Source: an uncultured Alphaproteobacteria bacterium
GTDB lineage: Bacteria; Pseudomonadota; Alphaproteobacteria; HIMB59; GCA-002718135
Direction of reading: 5' to 3'
Length of the DNA stretch: 64,000 nt
Assembly (NCBI GenBank): GCA_902577905.1
Contig: CACHAQ010000004.1
Coordinates: 12,206 to 76,205, forward strand
The position numbers and the translations under genes are program-made. Shown piece by piece: positions 14,383 through 30,878 of this stretch. Within the stretch, counting starts at the first letter, position 1; each line of letters begins with the position of its first letter. The notes beneath the pieces were generated by a model. It did not search any database, was not told the origin of the DNA, and saw only the letters and a program-made list of their open reading frames with translations.

Positions 14383-16368
14383 ATGAATCCAATAGAGCCA
14401 TCAGAAAATAAAATAAAAGAATTAATATCATTATTTGATAAAAAAAAATTTGATCAACTTTTGAAATTATCAAATGAACTAATAGATAAATTTCCTAACT
14501 CTATTCTTATTCAAAATATACAAGGTGTAGTACACACAGAACTTAAAAATTATAAATTAGCCAAAAATTTATTTATCAAAGTAGTTAATCTAAGCCCAAA
14601 TTATACTGATGGTCATTATAACTTAGCTAATGTTTACAACAAATTAGATGAAAAAGAGAGAGCAATAGAAAGTTATAATAAGGTTATAAAACTAGACATT
14701 AATTATTTTAAAGCTCATAATAATCTAGGAAATATATATAGAAAAAAAGGGTTAAATAAGAGGGCTATTGAATGTTATTTATCAACTTTAGAAATCAATT
14801 CAAATTATAAAGTAGCATATTACAACTTAGCAGGGGTACTTCAGTTTTACATATTAGATAAAGAGAATAAAAATATCAATAAATATCTTTTACATCTTTT
14901 AAAAGAAAAAATTATTGTTAGACCAAATTCTATTGCTCCTAATATTTTAAATGGTTTATATTTAAATACAGATTTGAAGAATAACTTATCTTTAATTAAG
15001 GATAAAATAACTAATGAAGATTTAAATTATATTTTAGAAAATTTACAGAACAACTCTCTTCTAATGCAATTTATGAAAGTGTGTCCTATTCCTGATTATT
15101 ATATCGAAAAAAATTTTGTTAAGATAAGAAAAGAAATTTTAAACCAAACATACAAATTAAATATTGATAAAAATCACATTAATTTTTTAATTTCTTTATC
15201 TATGCAATGTTTTCTTAATGAATATATTTATGACCAATCAAAAGATGAGATAGAAAAAATAAAAAAAATTGATGAAAGAATTAAAAACAATTTAAAAGAA
15301 AATAAAGAAATCAGTGATTTAGATATATTGTGCTTATTATGTTATGAACCTTTAACTAATTTTAGTTGGTCAAATAAAGTTAAATTTTCAGATAAATTAA
15401 ATGAAATATTTAAATTACATCTAAATCACAATGAAATTGAAATTCAAATATCTAAATCAATAAAGTCTATATCGAAAGTAGAGGATCACGTTTCAATTAA
15501 GGTAAAAAAACAATATGAAGAAAACCCTTATCCTAGATGGGAAAATCTTGGATTAAGTATTGAACCTAGAGAAATTAAAGAGGTAATAAATGATAACGAT
15601 TTAAATTTAGATTTAAAAAAAATAACAAACTCTGAAAGCCCTGAAATTCTAATTGCCGGTTGTGGCACTGGTCAGCATGCCATTACAACTGCTTCAAAAT
15701 ATAAAAAATCTAAAATACTTGCCCTCGATTTAAGTTTTAAAAGTTTATCTTATGCAAAAAGAAAGGCAAATGAGCTCAACATTAATAATATTGATTTTAT
15801 TCAAGGGGATATTTTAGATTTAGAATCAATAGGTAGAAAGTTTGATATAATTGAATCAGTTGGTGTTCTACATCATATGGATAATCCATTTAAAGGATGG
15901 AAAATATTAACATCATGTTTAAATAAAGATTCTTTAATGCTAATAGGATTATATAGTCAAAAGGCTAGAAAACACATAATTCAAATTAGAAATAAAATTA
16001 ATGATCTTAAACTAGAGCATAATTATAAAAATATCATTAAATTTAGAAAGGATCTAATAGAGAGTAATAATGACCAATGGAATGATATTATATCAAGTCC
16101 AGATTTTTATACAGTAAGTGGCGTGAGAGATTTATTATTTCATGTTCAAGAACATAGGTTTACAATAAATACAATTAAAGAATATTTAAATAAATTAGGA
16201 TTAACATTTCTTGGATTTGAAGATAAATTAGTTAAAGAAAATTTCAAAAAAATTTATTTAAATAAAGTTGATATATATAATCTTGATAAGTGGGAAGAAT
16301 ATGAAAAGTCTAATCCAAGGATCTTTGCAGGAATGTATCAATTTTGGTGCAAAAAAATTAATATTTAA
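14383..16368 (+). CDS. TPR-repeat / unknown central domain / class I SAM-dependent methyltransferase fusion protein
   Basis: About four TPR units in residues 30-160 (NLANVY, NLGNIY, YNLAGV). The C-terminus has IAGCGTGQH (motif I), LALDLS, GDILDL and ESVGVLHHM. The ATG directly abuts the yejF stop. Confidence 0.7.
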   Translation: MNPIEPSENKIKELISLFDKKKFDQLLKLSNELIDKFPNSILIQNIQGVVHTELKNYKLAKNLFIKVVNLSPNYTDGHYNLANVYNKLDEKERAIESYNKVIKLDINYFKAHNNLGNIYRKKGLNKRAIECYLSTLEINSNYKVAYYNLAGVLQFYILDKENKNINKYLLHLLKEKIIVRPNSIAPNILNGLYLNTDLKNNLSLIKDKITNEDLNYILENLQNNSLLMQFMKVCPIPDYYIEKNFVKIRKEILNQTYKLNIDKNHINFLISLSMQCFLNEYIYDQSKDEIEKIKKIDERIKNNLKENKEISDLDILCLLCYEPLTNFSWSNKVKFSDKLNEIFKLHLNHNEIEIQISKSIKSISKVEDHVSIKVKKQYEENPYPRWENLGLSIEPREIKEVINDNDLNLDLKKITNSESPEILIAGCGTGQHAITTASKYKKSKILALDLSFKSLSYAKRKANELNINNIDFIQGDILDLESIGRKFDIIESVGVLHHMDNPFKGWKILTSCLNKDSLMLIGLYSQKARKHIIQIRNKINDLKLEHNYKNIIKFRKDLIESNNDQWNDIISSPDFYTVSGVRDLLFHVQEHRFTINTIKEYLNKLGLTFLGFEDKLVKENFKKIYLNKVDIYNLDKWEEYEKSNPRIFAGMYQFWCKKINI

Positions 16369-17673: not shown

Positions 17674-17763
17674 TGGCGGAGAGAGAGGGATTCGAACCCT
17701 CGGTAGTATTGCTACTACACACGCTTTCCAAGCGTGCTGATTAAACCGCTCTCACATCTCTCC
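17674..17763 (-). tRNA. tRNA-Ser (anticodon GGA), CCA encoded
   Basis: The minus strand reads GGAGAGAUG...CUUGGAAAG...GUAGUAGCAAUACUACC...GAGGGUUCGAAUCCCUCUCUCUCCGCCA. It has a 7-bp acceptor stem, anticodon loop UUGGAAA, a long variable arm and a T-loop UUCGAAU. Confidence 0.9.
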
Positions 17764-17820
17764 AATTATAAAGAATTATTATAATAATTATTTTTTATAT
17801 TAATTAAACAAAAGTATTAT

Positions 17821-18654
17821 TTAAATATAGATAAATACAGTTACACAAATTATAATTAAAGAAGAAAATAATATTTTTTTTTCATTAAAAATTAAATCAA
17901 TAGGGAATTCACCAATATTTTTTGAAAATGATACTTTGTAATACTCATAAACTACAAGTATTAAAAATGGTAAAATAATTATTAAAATATTGTTAGAAAA
18001 TAGAATAAAAATAAATACACATAAAATAAATATAGCCCCATTAATTTTAGAAACTAATTTAAGAATTGCTATTGAATAGTTTAACTTTTTAATTCTTAAT
18101 GTCTCCTGATTAAGAACTTCTAAAGATCTTTTGATTGAAATAACAAACATTGCTAAACAAAAAACTGAAATTGCTAATGATAATGATGTTTCAACTTCGA
18201 TTATGTATGATCCTAAAAATAATCTAATGAGATAGCCAATTGAGATTAAAAACATCTCTAAATATTTTACTTTTTTTAGAAAAAATGAATAACTCACATT
18301 AATAACTAAATAAATCAAAATAAAATAAATAAGTTCAGGAAATAAAATTAAAAGAATTGTAATTACAATAATAAACAAAAAAAATAAAATTAATGAAAAA
18401 TTTAAACTTAAACTTTCAGAAGCTAAAGGTTTTATATTTCTTTTTAGTTTATGAAGCTTATCATCTTTATAATCTAAAATATCATTAAGTATATAAACTG
18501 AGGAAGTTGTAAGAGAAAATATAAAAAATGCTACTAAAACATTAATTATATTTTCTAGTGAATAAAAATTACTAGAAAAAATTATTGGAAAAAAAATTAC
18601 AATATTTTTTATCCAGTCTTTTACTCTGATTAATTGGATTACACTTCTAAACAT
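17821..18654 (-). CDS. UbiA-family prenyltransferase, decaprenyl-phosphate phosphoribosyltransferase (DPPR synthase)-like
   Basis: About 8 TM helices. NDILDYKDDKLHKLKRNIKPLAS matches the ND..D...D..H..KR..(R)P.A signature of the DPPR-synthase subfamily. Confidence 0.6.
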   Translation of the reverse strand: MFRSVIQLIRVKDWIKNIVIFFPIIFSSNFYSLENIINVLVAFFIFSLTTSSVYILNDILDYKDDKLHKLKRNIKPLASESLSLNFSLILFFLFIIVITILLILFPELIYFILIYLVINVSYSFFLKKVKYLEMFLISIGYLIRLFLGSYIIEVETSLSLAISVFCLAMFVISIKRSLEVLNQETLRIKKLNYSIAILKLVSKINGAIFILCVFIFILFSNNILIIILPFLILVVYEYYKVSFSKNIGEFPIDLIFNEKKILFSSLIIICVTVFIYI

Positions 18655-18692
18655 TAGAAATTTGTATAATATAGGATTACTAGTTAAATTAT

Positions 18693-20651
18693 ATGTTTTT
18701 TAAGTTATTTTTATTCTTAACAATTTTAATTAATTTAGGCTTACCATTAGTAAACAAACTAGATCTTGTTTTTATTTTTATATTTATTTCTTTCTTAATA
18801 CTTTTTCCCAGCATCAATTGGGGTATATTTATTAAAAAAAAAATAACCCTATTTTTTTTTATAATTATTACATCAATAAACTTGTTAATTCCAAAAAACT
18901 TTTTTCATGAATTCCATCAAGTTTTTTTAAATAGTAATGACATAGAAATAATCTCTAATTTACTACCTTCCAACGTAATGATAGATATTAAAAAAGACTA
19001 CAATAAGCATTTTGACATTGATAGAGCATTAAAATCAAGAGAGTGGCAAGAAAAGGAATTTAATAAAAGTCAATTTATAAATAAACCGTTTGCATATTCT
19101 TCTGATAATTTTTTTCAAAAATCTAATTTCACTAGAAAAAATAATAAAATAGAATTTAAGATGCGAGAACAATTAAGAATAGGTGAAATTAATTCTGGTA
19201 AATATAATCTTCCTTTTGATAAACAATTTAGAAGAGAATTACCATATTATGTACTATACGAAATTGATAAAAAAGCCTCAAACTCAAAAATTTGTTCTAA
19301 CAAAAAACTTTATTTTTTTGAGTCCAACAAAAAATTAAATCAAAAATTAATTCAGAAACAAACTTTTAGTAAAACAAGTAACGATAATTGTTTGGTTGTC
19401 GGAGGAGATTATAAATATTTATATTTACTAGGATATTCAATTAATTTAGCAGATAATTTAGAAATAAATACTGAATATAATTTAGAAATAATTTTTTTAA
19501 AATCTTTAAAATATTTTTTTACTTTGATTATAATTTTATTAATTTTTAATAGTAATTATCAAAAGAATTATTATGATTTTTTAATTTATTTTATTTCTGT
19601 ATGCAGTGGTTTAATTCTCACATTCATTAGAGATCCAAATCTTATATTTGGAATAAGATACTTTAGAGGTGGGGCTGATGGTCTTCAACACTATTCACAT
19701 GGCAAAGATATTCTAGAGAACATAAGTAATAATAATTTTATATCTGCTCTACAAGGTGGAGAAGATGTCTTTTATTTTATGCCTGGCCTAAGATATTTTA
19801 GTGCTATCAATAATCTTTTTTTTGGAGATACAACATATGGATATTTGATTTTATGCACTTTATTACCTTTATTATTTTTTAAATTGTTCAAAAAAATCAC
19901 TAATAAAAAAATATCATTTTATATTTTTATATCATTTATTTTTATACCAATTTTTGAAAATATGGGTTTTGGATATTTTAATTATATATGGCAATTTGCT
20001 AGACACCATGCTGAGACTTTAAGTATTTTACTTATTGTGTACTCAATTTACTTGATAGTTTGTCTTGATTTAGAAAAGAAAACCAAAGAACCACTATATC
20101 TTATTGGAATTTTTTTATCTTTATCAGTTTTTTTAAGGCCAAATTTTTTTCCAACAAGTTTGGTCTTAGTTTTATGTTCTGTGTTAATTTTATTTCAAAA
20201 CAGAAATTATAAAAGTATTTTTTTCATCCTTACAGGATATTCATTAATTTTTATTTCTTTAATTCATAATTATTATTTTGGTAATAGTTTATTTTTCTTT
20301 ACTGACTCAGGTGTAAATTTTAAACTAAACTTAAAATCGCTAGTTATTTCAATAATATCAATTATAAAATTAGATTTTAATAATGAAAATTTTTTAATAT
20401 TAAAATCACAAATAAGCAACTGGAACCCGCTGTATAATATACACCGTTTAATTATTCTTACATTTATATTTTATATAATATTAAAAAATAAACACAAACT
20501 CATTATTTATAGTCTATTCATATCAATGATTTTACAACATGGTGTATTGCTTGTAAGTCATCCAAGTAGCAGATATGCATATTTAGCTTGGTTACTTACT
20601 TTTGTATTATTTGTTTATTCATTTTTTTATTCTAGAAAAAAAATGAGATGA
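18693..20651 (+). CDS. Large polytopic membrane protein (about 14 TM), possible GT-C-type glycosyltransferase or polymerase
   Basis: 652 aa: three N-terminal TM helices, a K/N-rich soluble insert of about 190 aa, then many TM helices with a conserved-looking loop (RYFRGGADGLQHYSHG...FYFMPGLRYF). No family is recognised by eye. Confidence 0.35.
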   Translation: MFFKLFLFLTILINLGLPLVNKLDLVFIFIFISFLILFPSINWGIFIKKKITLFFFIIITSINLLIPKNFFHEFHQVFLNSNDIEIISNLLPSNVMIDIKKDYNKHFDIDRALKSREWQEKEFNKSQFINKPFAYSSDNFFQKSNFTRKNNKIEFKMREQLRIGEINSGKYNLPFDKQFRRELPYYVLYEIDKKASNSKICSNKKLYFFESNKKLNQKLIQKQTFSKTSNDNCLVVGGDYKYLYLLGYSINLADNLEINTEYNLEIIFLKSLKYFFTLIIILLIFNSNYQKNYYDFLIYFISVCSGLILTFIRDPNLIFGIRYFRGGADGLQHYSHGKDILENISNNNFISALQGGEDVFYFMPGLRYFSAINNLFFGDTTYGYLILCTLLPLLFFKLFKKITNKKISFYIFISFIFIPIFENMGFGYFNYIWQFARHHAETLSILLIVYSIYLIVCLDLEKKTKEPLYLIGIFLSLSVFLRPNFFPTSLVLVLCSVLILFQNRNYKSIFFILTGYSLIFISLIHNYYFGNSLFFFTDSGVNFKLNLKSLVISIISIIKLDFNNENFLILKSQISNWNPLYNIHRLIILTFIFYIILKNKHKLIIYSLFISMILQHGVLLVSHPSSRYAYLAWLLTFVLFVYSFFYSRKKMR

Positions 20652-21202
20652 AAATAATAACGCATTTAAGAAAATTAATTTATCCGTATGAGGATGTAGT
20701 GAAAGAGATACCGCCTTATTCTAATATTCTTGATATTGGATGTGGAAACTCTCATATTCTAGAAGATTTCACAAAACTGAAAATTAATTCATATACTGGA
20801 ATTGATCCTAAGGTGAAAAATAAAATTGAAGAAAAAAATATTTCTATTTCAAATAAAACAATTGAAGAGTTTATCGAAGAAATTGATAAATTTGATTGTA
20901 TATTAATGATTGATGTAATGCATCATTTACAAAAAGAAATCCAGGAAATTCTATTTAGAAATATAATTTCTTCTATGAAAAAAAATTCCCTTTTGATTTA
21001 CAAGGATATTTCAAATAGAAATAAATTTTTTGCTTTTATGAATTGGGCACATGATTTGCTATATAATTTCCAAAAGATTAATTACTTTAGCTCAGATAAC
21101 ATAAAATTAATTCTAAATAATAATGGAGTTGTTTACAAACATTATTTTAAAAGAGTATTTTGGTATGATCATGAGTTTTTTATTATAAGAAATACAAAAT
21201 AA
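20648..21202 (+). CDS. Small class I SAM-dependent methyltransferase
   Basis: ILDIGCGNS (motif I), GIDP and ILMIDVMHHL; 4-nt overlap with the upstream membrane-protein gene. Confidence 0.6.
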   Translation: MKIITHLRKLIYPYEDVVKEIPPYSNILDIGCGNSHILEDFTKLKINSYTGIDPKVKNKIEEKNISISNKTIEEFIEEIDKFDCILMIDVMHHLQKEIQEILFRNIISSMKKNSLLIYKDISNRNKFFAFMNWAHDLLYNFQKINYFSSDNIKLILNNNGVVYKHYFKRVFWYDHEFFIIRNTK

Positions 21203-21203
21203 T

Positions 21204-23000
21204 TTATTCCATTTTAAGAGCATTGAGAAAAGTATTCTGTGGAATGTCTACTTTTCCAAATTGGCGCATTCTTTTTTTTCCTTTTTTTTGTTTGTCTAAA
21301 AGTTTATTCTTTCTTGTAACGTCTCCACCATATAATTTTTGTGTAACATCTTTTCTAAAAGAGGCAACTGTTTCACGAGCAATTACTTTACCTCCTATTG
21401 CAGCTTGGATTGCAACTTTAAATTGTTGTCTTGGAATTAAATCTTTTAATCTTTCACAGAGTGCTCTACCTCTTTGCTCAGATCTATCTTTGTGGACAAT
21501 TAAAGATAAAGCATCTACTGGATCTCCATTTATAAGTATCCCTACTTTAACTAAATTATTTATCTCATATCCAGTAATTTCATAATCAAAACTTGCATAC
21601 CCTTTAGTAATAGATTTTAATCTATCATAAAAGTCAAAAACAACCTCATTTAGTGGAAGCTTATATTCAACTAAAGGTCTATTACCTGCATAACTCATAT
21701 TTAATTGAATACCTCGTTTGGAAGTACATAATTCTAAAACTGATCCTAAAAATTCTTCAGGTACTATTATTGTAGCCTTAATCCAAGGTTCAGAAATATT
21801 TTCAACTTTTACTGGATCTGGCATATCAGTAGGATTGTGTAGATTTATAGTTGATCCATCTTTCATTAATATTTTATAAACAACTGATGGGGCAGTAGTT
21901 ACAAGTTCTAAATTAAATTCTCTTTCAAACCGGTCTCTGATAATTTCTAGATGAAGTAAACCTAAGAAACCACAACGAAAACCATAACCTAATGCTGGAC
22001 TTACTTCTGGTTCATAAGAAAAGCTTGAATCATTTAATGCAAGTTTAGACATACTATCTCTCATATGTTCATAGTCATCTGAGTCGATAGGAAACATTCC
22101 ACAAAAAACGACCGGTTGAGATGGTTTGAAACCTGGAAGAACGTCTTCAGTTGGAAGTTTATCATCTGTTATTGTGTCACCAACTTTACAATCGGAAACA
22201 CTTTTAATACCAGAATTTATGAAACCTATTTCTCCTGGTCCAAGTGTATCAACTTCAGTTGCTTTAGGAGAAAAAATTCCGACTCTGTCAATTGTATATG
22301 TTGCACCTGTTGCCATAAATCTAATTTTTTGTCCTTTTTTAAGCTCTCCATTTATCACTCTTACAAGTACCACGACACCAAGATAACTATCATACCAACT
22401 ATCAACTAACATACATTTTAATTCTTTGCTTATTTCACCTAATGGAGATGGAAGAAGTGTTATAATTTTATTTAATAAATTTTCTATACCTGCACCTGTT
22501 TTTGCTGAAACAAGAGAAGCATTGTCTGTTTCAATACCAAGAACATCTTCAATTTGTGATTTTATTTTATCTGGCTCAGATGAGGGAAGATCAATTTTAT
22601 TAAGCACGGGCAAAATTTCGTGATCATTATTAATAGCCTGGTACGCATTAGCTAATGTTTGTGCCTCAACACCCTGAGTAGAATCAACTATTAACAAAGA
22701 CCCTTCGCATGCTGCTAAAGATCTTGATACCTCATATGAAAAATCAACATGACCTGGAGTGTCCATAATATTAAGTATGTAAGTTTTGCCATCTTTTGAT
22801 TTGTAAGAAAGTCTAACTGTTTGAGCTTTTATTGTAATGCCTCTTTCTCTTTCTAATTCCATTGAGTCTAGAACCTGTTCTTTCATTTCTCTATCAGTTA
22901 AACCACCACAAAACTGTATTAGTCTATCGGCTAACGTTGATTTTCCATGATCTATGTGAGCAACAATTGAGAAATTACGAATAGAACTAAGTTCTGTCAT
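21204..23000 (-). CDS. lepA: Translation elongation factor 4 (LepA)
   Basis: [28 protein letters not shown] and NKID G-motifs; C-terminal LepA-specific domain; 598 aa. Confidence 0.95.
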
Positions 23001-27841: not shown

Positions 27842-28849
27842 ATGAAAATTTGTTTAATTAGAAACGATAAAATGGGAGATATGATCCTTACTCTTCCAGT
27901 TGTTCAAGGACTAAAACAAGCTAATCAGGATTGTAAAATTGATATTGTATGTTCTCAAAAAAATCAAAAAATATGTAAAAAATATAAATCTATTAACAAA
28001 ATTTTTTTACTTCAAAATAAATTTTATCAAGTCTTGAAAATAATTTTAAAATTAAGAAATGAAGATTATGATTATATTTTCACATTTAGCCCTGGTATAT
28101 TCAGTATATTAATATCAATTTTTTCTAAAAGTAAAATAAAGTCATTATTAATTTTTAAATCTCGATACAAAAATAATTACATGAGTAAATTTTTTGATAG
28201 AATTTTGGGTAAAATCTTTTTTACTCACTGCTTAATAATCGATCGTCAAATAAGATATTCCAAAAAAATACCAATTCATCAAACAGAAATTATGATGGAG
28301 TTAGTTACTAAAAGTGGATTAAGTTATAATAATACTGCAGAAATTAAGAATGAATTAGGATTTAATAAAATAGAAATAAGTTCTAAGAAATTATGCTTAA
28401 TTCACTTGTCTTCAAAATGGATCAATAAATATTTTTCAGAAGAAAACTTTATTAAACTATTAGACAATCTTAAAAATTTGAAAATCAATATTGTAATAAC
28501 AACTGATGGAACATCAAAAAATGTATTCTATGAAATATTTAAAAAATATGAAGTTATTACTAATGAAGAGTTTGAAAATCTTAAAAGTATAAATAATATT
28601 TTAATCTTAGATAAATTAAGTTTTGATAATTGGACATCAATAATAAACTCTTCAACATATGTAATTACACCTGAATGTGGATGCACACATATTGCATCAC
28701 TTTCTGAAACGAAACTTTGTGTTATTTATGATTCAGATAATCTTCCAGGTATGATTGCAGATGAATATGCGCCATGGAAGAAAAAATATACTAAACTATT
28801 CTCTAACAACCAAAATTTAGAAAAAGAATTAATTTCATTTATTGATTAA
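27842..28849 (+). CDS. Glycosyltransferase family 9 (LPS heptosyltransferase-like)
   Basis: The N-terminal KICLIRNDKMGDMILTLPV motif is typical of GT9; 335 aa. Confidence 0.6.
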   Translation: MKICLIRNDKMGDMILTLPVVQGLKQANQDCKIDIVCSQKNQKICKKYKSINKIFLLQNKFYQVLKIILKLRNEDYDYIFTFSPGIFSILISIFSKSKIKSLLIFKSRYKNNYMSKFFDRILGKIFFTHCLIIDRQIRYSKKIPIHQTEIMMELVTKSGLSYNNTAEIKNELGFNKIEISSKKLCLIHLSSKWINKYFSEENFIKLLDNLKNLKINIVITTDGTSKNVFYEIFKKYEVITNEEFENLKSINNILILDKLSFDNWTSIINSSTYVITPECGCTHIASLSETKLCVIYDSDNLPGMIADEYAPWKKKYTKLFSNNQNLEKELISFID

Positions 28850-29770
28850 TTTACTATCTTGTAAAAAATCTAAAACTTTTTTTACTGAAATTGAGTCCAT
28901 TGTATCGGTCAGAATCGTATAAGCATTTTTATATTCAGATAAGTTTGATTTTGAGATAACATTATCTTTAGCTAAAAAAAGAATAGGTGAATTACTTAGA
29001 GCTGCTATATGACCTGGGCCAGTATCATTACTAATTATAAAATCACTTTTTTTAGCGATGGAATAGATGATTTCAGGAGGTGATTTATCGCTTAAATCAA
29101 TAACCTTCTGACATGCATTATTGATCGTTTCTACTGTTTGTTTATCTGATTTTTGCCCAATAACACAAATATGATATCCTTTTTTTTCTAGAGTACTTGC
29201 AAGTATTGCAAATTTATCTGGTGACCATTGCTTGTCCTTGCCTGATTTAGAAACACCAGGTATCATTAAGATTATTTTATCTTCATTAATTGCCGTAATA
29301 TCTCTGGAAAGCCAATCTACATTTTGATAAATTTCATTTACTCCAAGTAACTTTAGTTGATTATATAAACCTTGTTGTGGAGATTCAGTTCCTTGTGGAG
29401 GAATTACATATTGAATATCACAATTAGAACGAGATCCGTTAACTTTTACTTCTGAAATAAATTTTAAGAATGACCAATAATTATTTGTTCTTTTAGAATT
29501 CTGTAAATCTATGATTAGATCGTATTTATTTTGATTAATTTTTAATATAACCTTAAGTGAATCAATTATTCCTTTTCTATTATCTTTAAAAATCGAATTA
29601 AAATAATTTGAATTGCTTAAAAAATTTGCGTATTTTTCTTCAGTTAGCAAGTCAATAGTGGCATTACTAAAAAATTGCTTAATTGATGCCATAGCAAGTA
29701 TAGAAAATGCAATATCACCAAGTGATCCATGCTTTACAACTAGTATTTTGTTAAATTGACTGCTGTTCAT
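28835..29770 (-). CDS. Glycosyltransferase family 9 (LPS heptosyltransferase-like)
   Basis: ILVVKHGSLGDIAFS N-terminus and a C-terminal SNDTGPGHIAA motif. Confidence 0.65.
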   Translation of the reverse strand: MNSSQFNKILVVKHGSLGDIAFSILAMASIKQFFSNATIDLLTEEKYANFLSNSNYFNSIFKDNRKGIIDSLKVILKINQNKYDLIIDLQNSKRTNNYWSFLKFISEVKVNGSRSNCDIQYVIPPQGTESPQQGLYNQLKLLGVNEIYQNVDWLSRDITAINEDKIILMIPGVSKSGKDKQWSPDKFAILASTLEKKGYHICVIGQKSDKQTVETINNACQKVIDLSDKSPPEIIYSIAKKSDFIISNDTGPGHIAALSNSPILFLAKDNVISKSNLSEYKNAYTILTDTMDSISVKKVLDFLQDSKLINK

Positions 29771-30878
29771 ATAAGTCTACGTAACTTTGTACCATTTGGT
29801 ATTTTGAAAATGTTTTTGATATATAGTCTTTGCTTTCTAATGAAATATTAGAAAATTTTTCTTTATCTATTTTTATAATATTTTGAAGTTTTATGTTTAT
29901 TTCATTATATTTATGAGGATCTACTTTATAAATATCATCTAATTTATTGAGCTGATCTTTAACACCACCATAGTTAAAGGCTAGTAGCCTTTTTTTCATT
30001 ATTAATGCTTCGCTTATAATTCTTCCAAATCCTTCAGCTTGTAAAGGAAATGAGGTAATAATTGATGATAGGTAATATAAAGTTTTCAAATCATCTCTTG
30101 GTAGATTGCCTATAATCTTACATTTATGACCAAGGTTAAAACTTTGAATTTTATTTTGTAGTTTCTCTGTATAAGATTGATTTTTTGTATCTCCTGCAAA
30201 ATAAAGTAAAAAATTATCATATTGCATCTTATTAAATATATCTAAAAACTCAATTTGACCTTTCCAGTTTGTTAGCCTTGCAGGATATAGAATAATATTT
30301 TTTGAGGTATCAATTTGATACTTATTTATTATATTTTCTATTTGAGAATCTAAAAGTGGTTTTTCAAAAAATTTAACATCAACTCCTCTATTAATCACTT
30401 TAATTTTATTTGAATCCAAATTGTATTTTTTACTAATTTCATTTTTTACATAATTTGAAATAGCAACAATCTGATCAACTTTGGATAATTGCTTATTATA
30501 GATTTTTTTAAAATAAGAATTACCACTATACACATTATGAAATGTAGATATTGTTTTGAAGTTTCTATTTTTTATAAAACTTAAAATCCATGCTGGTGCT
30601 CTTGATCTTACATGAACAACATTAATATTTTGATTAAAAATTAATTTTTTTAATTGATTAGCAATTAATGGATAAATAAAAAAATTTTTTGAGTTAACTG
30701 GTAATTGAAAATGATCAGTATAATTTTTATCAATTTCCTTAATTAAACGCCCTCCATTTGAAATAATATTATTTTTTAAATTTAATTCAGATAAATAATT
30801 TGCAACTTCAATAGTGCCTCTTTCGACACCACCAGAATCTAAAGAGGGAAGAATTTGAGCGACATTAAATGATGACAT
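29751..30878 (-). CDS. Glycosyltransferase family 4 (GT-B, group 1)
   Basis: PSLDSGGVERG N-terminus and a C-terminal E..G....EA signature (QAEGFGRIISEAL). Confidence 0.65.
   Translation of the reverse strand: MSSFNVAQILPSLDSGGVERGTIEVANYLSELNLKNNIISNGGRLIKEIDKNYTDHFQLPVNSKNFFIYPLIANQLKKLIFNQNINVVHVRSRAPAWILSFIKNRNFKTISTFHNVYSGNSYFKKIYNKQLSKVDQIVAISNYVKNEISKKYNLDSNKIKVINRGVDVKFFEKPLLDSQIENIINKYQIDTSKNIILYPARLTNWKGQIEFLDIFNKMQYDNFLLYFAGDTKNQSYTEKLQNKIQSFNLGHKCKIIGNLPRDDLKTLYYLSSIITSFPLQAEGFGRIISEALIMKKRLLAFNYGGVKDQLNKLDDIYKVDPHKYNEINIKLQNIIKIDKEKFSNISLESKDYISKTFSKYQMVQSYVDLYEQQSI

Follow-up and report, generated by a model that had tools for sequence, protein, structure and literature searches.

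The mycobacterial decaprenyl-phospho-arabinose pathway relies on Rv3806c, Rv3807c, DprE1/E2, Rv3789 and the Emb/Aft glycosyltransferases (GTs) of the GT-C type. Here we describe a three-gene module from an uncultured member of the Alphaproteobacteria (GenBank assembly GCA_902577905.1, contig CACHAQ010000004.1) and compare it with this and other systems. The module lies at positions 17764-21203 of a 64,000-nucleotide stretch of DNA, hereafter the window, and encodes a UbiA-type protein of 277 amino acids (aa), a 652-aa membrane protein and a 184-aa methyltransferase. The closest described counterpart is the three-component pathway of Citrobacter youngae O1/O2, in which completed O-antigens receive alpha-ribofuranose, or xylo-/arabinofuranose when epimerases are present, within the periplasm (Kelly et al., PNAS 2024; PMC11127046). 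Its components are ORF15 (PRP-PPPRS), the MATE flippase ORF14 and the GT-C enzyme ORF12, the founding member of GT136. ORF12 has 11 transmembrane (TM) helices, with a small helical domain behind TM1 and a carbohydrate-binding module at the C-terminus (PMC11127046). We propose that the window module probably directs extracytoplasmic pentofuranosylation of an envelope glycan, as a variant of these three-component systems. A first-pass annotation of the same DNA could not match the module to a described SAR11 system; the module does fit the pentofuranose systems published in 2024 (PMC11127046).

As in the Citrobacter systems, a UbiA-type polyprenyl-phosphoribose synthase dependent on phosphoribosyl pyrophosphate (PRPP) appears to be paired with a GT-C-type transferase in a compact module outside the main O-chain cluster, and ribofuranose is the product expected without an epimerase. 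Loci related to the window module also contain the HAD-UbiA fusion and a flippase, whereas the window module itself has no HAD domain, MATE or GtrA. The transferases differ as well: that of the window has 14 TM helices, carries its beta-rich domain behind TM3 and lacks a C-terminal domain, an architecture that sets it apart from GT136 as described, and its family has no Pfam model. Finally, a methyltransferase dependent on S-adenosylmethionine (SAM) is coupled or fused to transferases of the window type, a component absent from the published description of the Citrobacter pathway (PMC11127046).

The resemblance to the mycobacterial pathway lies in the homologous first enzyme with its conserved PRPP ligands, in the use of lipid-linked pentofuranose by GT-C enzymes, and in the presence of AftB among the best structural matches of the 652-aa protein. 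In contrast to mycobacteria, no DprE1/E2 epimerase, PAP2 phosphatase or SMR flippase was found on the window side, and a single transferase, instead of a set of polymerising enzymes, is encoded by a Gram-negative host with a streamlined genome. The Gtr (GtrA, GtrB and a further Gtr component) and Arn (ArnC/ArnT) systems follow the same logic of lipid-phosphate sugar synthase, flippase and GT-C. They share with the module an accessory location by a tRNA gene and a weak profile match to ArnT/PMT_2, and paralogous loci of the 652-aa family use GT2 and short-chain dehydrogenase/reductase (SDR) proteins, in some cases with UDP-glucose dehydrogenase. Their donor synthase, however, is a GT2 acting on a nucleotide sugar, whereas that of the window would be a UbiA-type phosphoribosyltransferase acting on PRPP. 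Pilin arabinosylation by TfpW in Pseudomonas (para)aeruginosa likewise combines a Gram-negative homologue of the first enzyme with a GT-C protein; since the window module has neither an adjacent pilin gene nor any DprE1/E2 homologue found, its acceptor is probably not pilin.

A putative donor synthase of the UbiA type

Judged by its sequence, the 277-aa protein is a putative polyprenyl-phosphate 5-phosphoribosyltransferase (PPPRS), of the type of the decaprenylphosphoryl-5-phosphoribose (DPPR) synthases. Pfam returns only the generic UbiA domain (4.5e-13), but the top NCBIfam model is NF008977, decaprenyl-phosphate phosphoribosyltransferase (5.9e-40), and the HAD-UbiA model PRK08238 also matches (8e-37). 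No quinone or haem prenyltransferase model is listed at the limit of 0.1, the only other prenyltransferase model being the generic PRK12884 (3.7e-6). A sequence search of the PDB returns nothing but the Rv3806c entries 8j8j and 8j8k (2.7e-20). No HAD phosphatase domain is fused to the protein according to Pfam and NCBIfam.

The ligand positions are preserved as well. In Rv3806c, the 5'-phosphate is held by K28, Y70 and Y157, the pyrophosphate by R22, K87, R90, K143 and Y138, and Mg by N73 and D77, and other UbiA enzymes do not share the phosphoribose-binding sites (PMC10994848). Residues R22, K28, Y70, N73 and D77 correspond to R10, K16, Y54, N57 and D61 of the window protein, and K87, R90, Y138, K143 and Y157 to K71, K75 (an Arg-to-Lys change), Y122, K127 and Y141; D58 and D65 of the window protein also correspond to PRPP and Mg sites. 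The equivalent of Q135 is an Asn, at a position that varies across the family. An alignment of 24 rows, made up of the window protein and UbiA homologues linked to the 652-aa family, shows invariant residues or conservative replacements at the PRPP and Mg ligand positions, and the DPPR-synthase and HAD-UbiA (PRK08238) models match all 23 aligned sequences, that is, the window protein and 22 linked homologues.

The genome carries two other UbiA-family genes, both on another contig and encoding a CtaB-like and a 4-hydroxybenzoate-type (UbiA-like) paralogue, neither of which has equivalents of K28, Y70, K87 and Y157. The 4-hydroxybenzoate-type paralogue keeps NDxxDxxxD...RPLAS, so that this motif alone is not diagnostic. 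The first-pass annotation was right that the ND..D...D..RP.A signature is present, the peptide NDILDYKDDKLHKLKRNIKPLAS that it quoted being found in the protein. On sequence grounds, the true discriminators are K16, Y54, K71, Y141, R144 and K175. Its conclusion that the protein is DPPR-synthase-like, and not of the quinone or haem type, is upheld by NF008977, the PDB search, the PRPP residues and the nesting in a tree. Indeed, in a small maximum-likelihood tree Rv3806c is nested among the homologues linked to the 652-aa family, with support of 97/93 for its grouping with those of Acidimicrobiia, and the CtaB and UbiA paralogues of the genome lie on very long branches. With few outgroups and the 4-hydroxybenzoate-type paralogue unresolved on its long branch, this tree shows only that Rv3806c falls inside the linked clade.

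These data bear on a different view of the module, in which the UbiA protein and the methyltransferase would, like UbiA and UbiG, produce a small molecule that is both prenylated and methylated, and the membrane protein would be unrelated to glycans. UbiG is indeed the best NCBIfam match of the methyltransferase, although a weak one (7.5e-8), and reappears among its fold matches, and every UbiA enzyme has the NDxxDxxxD motif. However, all the phosphoribose-binding residues of Rv3806c that prenyltransferases do not share are present, the DPPR-synthase models score at about 1e-40 against 3.7e-6 for PRK12884, and the genome already possesses UbiA and CtaB. Furthermore, five related loci contain a long, apparently HAD-fused UbiA open reading frame (ORF), comparable to Citrobacter ORF15 (PMC11127046). 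We consider the small-molecule explanation very improbable.

The 652-aa membrane protein

With moderate confidence, the partner of the UbiA protein is predicted to be a GT-C-type glycosyltransferase. Searches of Pfam, NCBIfam and the PDB with the single protein gave no match, and none of the Pfam GT-C families matched any of 69 diverse members of its family. The family is nevertheless large: about 100 homologues, mostly SAR11-like, were returned by a word-indexed search, and a profile search of 1.84 billion representatives identified 1,060 family clusters (defined at 50% identity) at E<=1e-3, 340 of them at E<=1e-30. No copy was found in phage or plasmid collections.

An AlphaFold model built with 45 homologues reached a predicted local distance difference test score (pLDDT) of 90.8 and a predicted TM-score (pTM) of 0.90. 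Hydropathy and the AlphaFold helices together give 14 TM helices, as the first-pass annotation had roughly estimated, in an N-in/C-in topology with short Lys/Arg-rich cytoplasmic loops. Residues 1-67 form three TM helices, and a beta-rich periplasmic domain of 196 residues (68-263), with cysteines C201 and C233 that are invariant among close homologues, is inserted between TM3 and TM4. Across the wide family the invariant or nearly invariant positions are D329 (in GGxDG), R367-Y368 (in MPGxRYF), R482-P483-N484, H525-N526 and R627. All the invariant polar residues sit at the periplasmic face, D329 following TM5 on that side of the membrane.

When the model was compared with the PDB by Foldseek, the 14 best matches were all GT-C proteins of four families (STT3/AglB/PglB, AftB, DPY19, ALG12), with probabilities of 0.94-1.00. 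Small beta-sandwich domains came next and presumably correspond to the periplasmic domain. A profile comparison points in the same direction. With hhalign, the 69-sequence family profile aligned over residues 317-653 with an ArnT/PMT_2 alignment built from 30 alphaproteobacterial loci (score 46, P=1.4e-4), whereas controls with reversed profiles and the unrelated UbiA family scored 14-24 (P 0.06-0.35). In this alignment D329 of the GGxDG loop pairs with the Asp of the PMT_2 'DE' loop, and MPGLRYF with the 'PPL' segment. Comparisons with two single neighbours, a 601-aa protein in locus L029 and a PMT-like protein in L028, were not significant; the former is labelled DUF8201 by one tool and had no Pfam match on scan. 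The predicted fold and the weak profile match above controls thus give moderate support to the GT-C likeness that had first been suggested from protein size and helix number. In the model, TM5-TM14 would constitute the GT-C core, preceded by an add-on of four TM helices and the beta domain, a division that we also hold with moderate confidence.

The genome also encodes a conventional GT-C protein of the PMT_2/ArnT type, a 470-aa ORF on contig 3 (64857-65348; 7.1e-25).

Linkage, methylation and the proposed pathway

The three genes are one unit. Their co-conservation is seen across genomes and extends to fusions in other organisms. A PPPRS-type UbiA gene adjoins the 652-aa family in 27 of 56 public-genome loci, in divergent, upstream, downstream or convergent arrangements and in hosts such as members of the Alpha- and Gammaproteobacteria, Bdellovibrionota and Acidimicrobiia. 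The long, apparently HAD-fused UbiA ORF occurs in five of the linked loci, HAD being confirmed by Pfam only in L073, and in L059 and L064 the module contains small GtrA-type flippase genes. The window methyltransferase has its counterpart in 11 loci, either next to the family gene or fused to it. Among longer representatives of the family, one (P0135) has a C-terminal UbiA domain carrying the same motif block, two (P0115 and P0232) have a C-terminal Methyltransf_23 domain homologous to the window methyltransferase over its full length (5e-17), one (P0231) is fused to the lipid-phosphate phosphatase PgpA and one (P0229) carries a GDSL domain. A methyltransferase domain is also fused to the C-terminus of the family in L037 and L046. 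Because the 652-aa protein has its C-terminus on the inner side of the membrane, methyltransferase, UbiA and PgpA domains fused there face the cytoplasm, the site of donor synthesis and of SAM.

Loci without a UbiA gene usually contain a GT2 and an SDR 'epimerase/dehydratase'. Cassettes of the order epimerase(SDR)-transferase-GT2 are found in single-amplified genomes of SAR11 (L055, L057, L058) and, accompanied by UDP-glucose dehydrogenase, in metagenome-assembled genomes (MAGs) of Francisellaceae (L050, L054). The layout resembles Arn/Gtr and constitutes a further route to a polyprenyl-phosphate sugar, in keeping with a GT-C role, and the dehydrogenase and SDR of L050 and L054 would fit a pentose derived from UDP-glucuronate. 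The family is thus consistently partnered with enzymes of lipid-phosphate sugar donors, as expected for GT-C proteins.

Several further loci deserve mention. Three tandem paralogues of the family, preceded by a GT2 and followed by a weak PMT-like GT-C, occur on a 1.6-Mb contig of an anaerobe-like genome (L028), and two in a member of Desulfobacterales (L048). A 7.4-kb contig labelled Parcubacteria group bacterium (L030, PBQF01000041.1) carries a UbiA-transferase pair 47% identical to that of the window in a SAR11-like arrangement and is probably misbinned. Distant family members of 900-1087 aa in Ilumatobacteraceae and a 'Bifidobacterium' MAG (L079-L082) have a lipid-flavoured context of adh_short, FAD_binding_3 (geranylgeranyl-reductase-like), MFS, AMP-binding and ABC1 kinase genes; as these neighbours are not DprE1/E2, the loci were not used as support for an arabinose pathway.

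The 184-aa protein is a cytoplasmic class I SAM-dependent methyltransferase (Pfam Methyltransf_23, 1.1e-16) with an invariant DIGCG motif. Its AlphaFold model (pLDDT 88.3) has 964 PDB methyltransferase matches at E<=1e-3, which represent only generic class I folds (BioC, polyketide O-methyltransferases, METTL6, UbiG, NodS). Our best guess for its substrate is a hydroxyl of the lipid-linked sugar. Capping of the 5-phosphate in place of a phosphatase was also considered and judged unlikely, since the methyltransferase co-occurs with apparent HAD-UbiA fusions (L064, L067, L073).

A pathway can be proposed from these elements. The UbiA enzyme would make a lipid-linked ribose-type sugar inside the cell, and its 5-phosphate would be removed by a phosphatase encoded outside the module. 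The substrate of the methyltransferase may be the lipid-linked sugar or some other intermediate of this pathway at the cytoplasmic face, and a flippase, also encoded outside the module, would carry the donor across the membrane. At the periplasmic face the GT-C-type protein would then move the pentofuranose to the acceptor, a step with moderate support, in which D329 is the likely catalytic acid and the beta-rich N-terminal domain may bind the acceptor. As candidate acceptor we can only guess at the core or O-chain of lipopolysaccharide (LPS), given the GT9 and GT4 genes of core type at a distance of 6.6 kb.

A number of observations weigh against this proposal. The NF008977 score of 137.5 bits falls short of the equivalog cut-off of 234, which makes the UbiA protein a divergent member, and the PRK08238 match is likewise below its cut-off. 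The moderately supported GT-C assignment is a prediction: the E-values of the Foldseek matches are weak (1.6e-2 at best) with TM-scores of about 0.3, the probability of the hhalign match to PMT_2 is only 53%, a narrower SAR11-only profile gave no signal against PMT_2, and a profile search of the PDB with the family returned nothing. About half of the family loci have no UbiA gene within 7 kb, which indicates that the family is not tied to a single donor. The fold search of the methyltransferase provides no substrate clue. Neither a flippase (GtrA, SMR, MATE) nor a phosphatase is encoded in or beside the module; in the source assembly, which is 87% complete, GtrA and SMR have no match and MATE genes occur only on other contigs. 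A housekeeping pgpA is found on contig 16.

The missing flippase and the weak fold evidence invite the alternative that the 652-aa protein is not a glycosyltransferase at all but another polytopic envelope protein that acts on the lipid-linked product: it might flip or export it, polymerise or ligate it in the manner of Wzy or WaaL, or acylate it. Transport by this protein would make up for the missing local flippase, and sequence searches matched the family to no known GT. On the other hand, no transporter, Wzy, WaaL or SEDS protein is among the top 14 structural matches, all of them GT-C, and the profile alignment coincides with the catalytic EL1 loop of PMT_2. In addition, separate GtrA flippases accompany the family in related loci, and the invariant Asp, Arg, His and Tyr residues cluster at the periplasmic face as in GT-C active sites. 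We therefore regard a function other than glycosyl transfer as unlikely. That acceptor, flippase and phosphatase are all unidentifiable in the module would also suit a scheme in which the pathway ends with the lipid-linked (methyl-)ribose, as a membrane or signalling lipid, and no glycan is modified; the conserved partnership with a GT-C-like protein, fusions included, would then have no explanation, and we give this scheme very little credence.

The identity of the sugar raises a further alternative. In a pathway of the mycobacterial or TfpW style, DprE1/DprE2-like enzymes with genes outside the module would epimerise the lipid-linked ribose to arabinofuranose, and the 652-aa protein would be an arabinofuranosyltransferase. 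AftB, which uses decaprenyl-phospho-arabinose, is the structural match of lowest rmsd (6.8 A over 385 columns), Rv3806c groups with the Acidimicrobiia UbiA homologues linked to the family, and some related loci include adh_short or SDR epimerase genes. Yet no ALO/DprE1-type domain was found in the 87%-complete assembly, whose only two FAD_binding_4 genes are both on other contigs, and no FAD_binding_4 or Epimerase-family/SDR gene lies near the module. The first-pass annotation had likewise seen neither an epimerase of the DprE1 type nor a phosphatase. Moreover, none of the related loci has a DprE1/DprE2 pair, the actinobacterial FAD protein being of the FAD_binding_3 type. Because there is no DprE1-type domain or nearby epimerase, ribofuranose is likelier than arabinofuranose and is most likely the sugar transferred; the arabinofuranose route appears less probable still than a transporter or polymerase function of the 652-aa protein.

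A bolder extension of the proposed pentofuranosylation pathway is conceivable and, in our view, rather doubtful. Here the 652-aa protein would found a new, widespread GT-C family at the CAZy level, with donor enzymes fused or coupled to its cytoplasmic tail, so that PPPRS, 5-phosphatase and methyltransferase would be physically assembled on the transferase and the lipid-linked pentofuranose methylated before flipping. The transferase itself, or its extra 4-TM N-terminal module, might replace the missing flippase. On this reading SAR11 and many other Proteobacteria would carry O-methyl-ribofuranose decorations produced by methylation at the level of the donor, which would be new for three-component systems.

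An accessory insert between lepA and a tRNA gene

The coordinates of the module and of its surroundings are collected in Table 1. The ORFs, their spacing and overlap and the neighbouring tRNA-Ser(GGA) are as originally annotated. The UbiA stop codon lies 57 nt from the tRNA gene, and the stop codon of the methyltransferase gene is 1 nt away from that of lepA. The overlap of the membrane-protein and methyltransferase genes consists of 4 nt (ATGA, 20648-20651), which suggests that the methyltransferase is translationally coupled to the transferase. With so short a divergent spacer, any promoters must overlap coding sequence; a promoter scan remained at chance level (34 sites against 33.6 expected) and was uninformative.

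Table 1. Features of the module and flanking genes, in window coordinates
Feature	Position	Strand	Size	Remark
TPR-methyltransferase fusion gene	14383-16368			conserved flank, outside the module
tRNA-Ser(GGA)	17674-17763	-		left boundary of the insert (ARAGORN)
UbiA-family gene	17821-18654	-	277 aa	ORF list
Divergent intergenic spacer	18655-18692		38 bp	between the start codons of the UbiA and 652-aa genes
Membrane-protein gene	18693-20651	+	652 aa	ORF list
Methyltransferase gene	20648-21202	+	184 aa	ORF list
lepA	21204-23000	-		right boundary of the insert
Two GT9 (heptosyltransferase-type) genes and one GT4 gene	27842-30878			resemble an LPS-core cluster

The module is the most AT-rich block in its part of the window. 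Its three genes have a GC content of 18.7-22.7%, against 29-34% in lepA, pheST and gltB, and, as had been noticed at first sight, Ile, Lys, Asn and Phe make up a larger share of its proteins (a combined fraction of 0.41-0.44 versus 0.24-0.32 for the same core genes). Other envelope genes of the window (GT9a, TPR-MT) are comparably AT-rich. The module was originally placed next to a tRNA-Ser integration scar. It does adjoin the tRNA gene, lying between its 5' end and the lepA stop codon; the cassette scar, however, is on the other, 3' side of the tRNA.

Comparison of relatives supports the accessory status that the first-pass annotation had suspected. Homologues of the 652-aa protein occur in 21 out of 116 genomes from the same taxonomic family, a set with many incomplete members, and in 4 of the 11 that are at least 90% complete. 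Of 29 other genomes from the same genus, 9 (L089, L092, L093, L097, L101, L105, L106, L107 and L114) have an empty site, at which tRNA-Ser(GGA) starts 5 nt past the lepA stop codon; the remaining ones have different short inserts at lepA, among them L094 with the methyltransferase, or reach a contig end. These empty sites in relatives define the module as a 3.4-kb accessory insert between lepA and the 5' end of the tRNA. In the window LepA ends in LKME (21204-21215), compared with LKMNDN in the empty-site relatives shown (L089-L114), which indicates that the insert junction altered the last lepA codons.

In related SAR11 genomes the UbiA-transferase pair is kept at the lepA/tRNA site and its partner genes vary, being either a Methyltransf_23 gene or a GT4 with an FkbM-type methyltransferase; one genome has an additional SDR epimerase, a GT2 and another large membrane protein. 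In L031, L034 and L035 the transferase is followed by the GT4 and a 294-aa FkbM-type methyltransferase (weak Pfam match, 1.6e-4) instead of the Methyltransf_23 gene, and a carbamoyltransferase gene adjoins the UbiA gene in L034.

Outside the module, the TPR-methyltransferase gene directly adjoins tRNA-Ser in empty-site relatives (L097, L101 and L086 were compared) and is therefore assigned to the conserved flank. The GT9/GT9/GT4 genes also belong to the conserved flank, beyond infC-rpmI-rplT-pheST-lepA, and have the same arrangement in L029.

The pathway type was described in 2024, and the window module is a variant of it that introduces no new principle. What is new is the link between a large unnamed membrane-protein family and a lipid-linked pentose pathway, the fusion evidence for a methylation step as yet undescribed in this type of pathway, and the clean presence/absence polymorphism of the module in SAR11. 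A module that adds a pentofuranose and is present in some strains and absent from others is a plausible source of strain-level differences in susceptibility to phages and grazers. An unannotated family also gains a specific and testable predicted role, that of a GT-C transferase fed by polyprenyl-phosphate pentose donors, and the culturable carriers Hwanghaeella grinnelliae Gri0909, whose genome has UbiA and a fused transferase and methyltransferase, Aestuariispira insulae CECT 8488 and Fluviispira multicolorata make this prediction directly testable.

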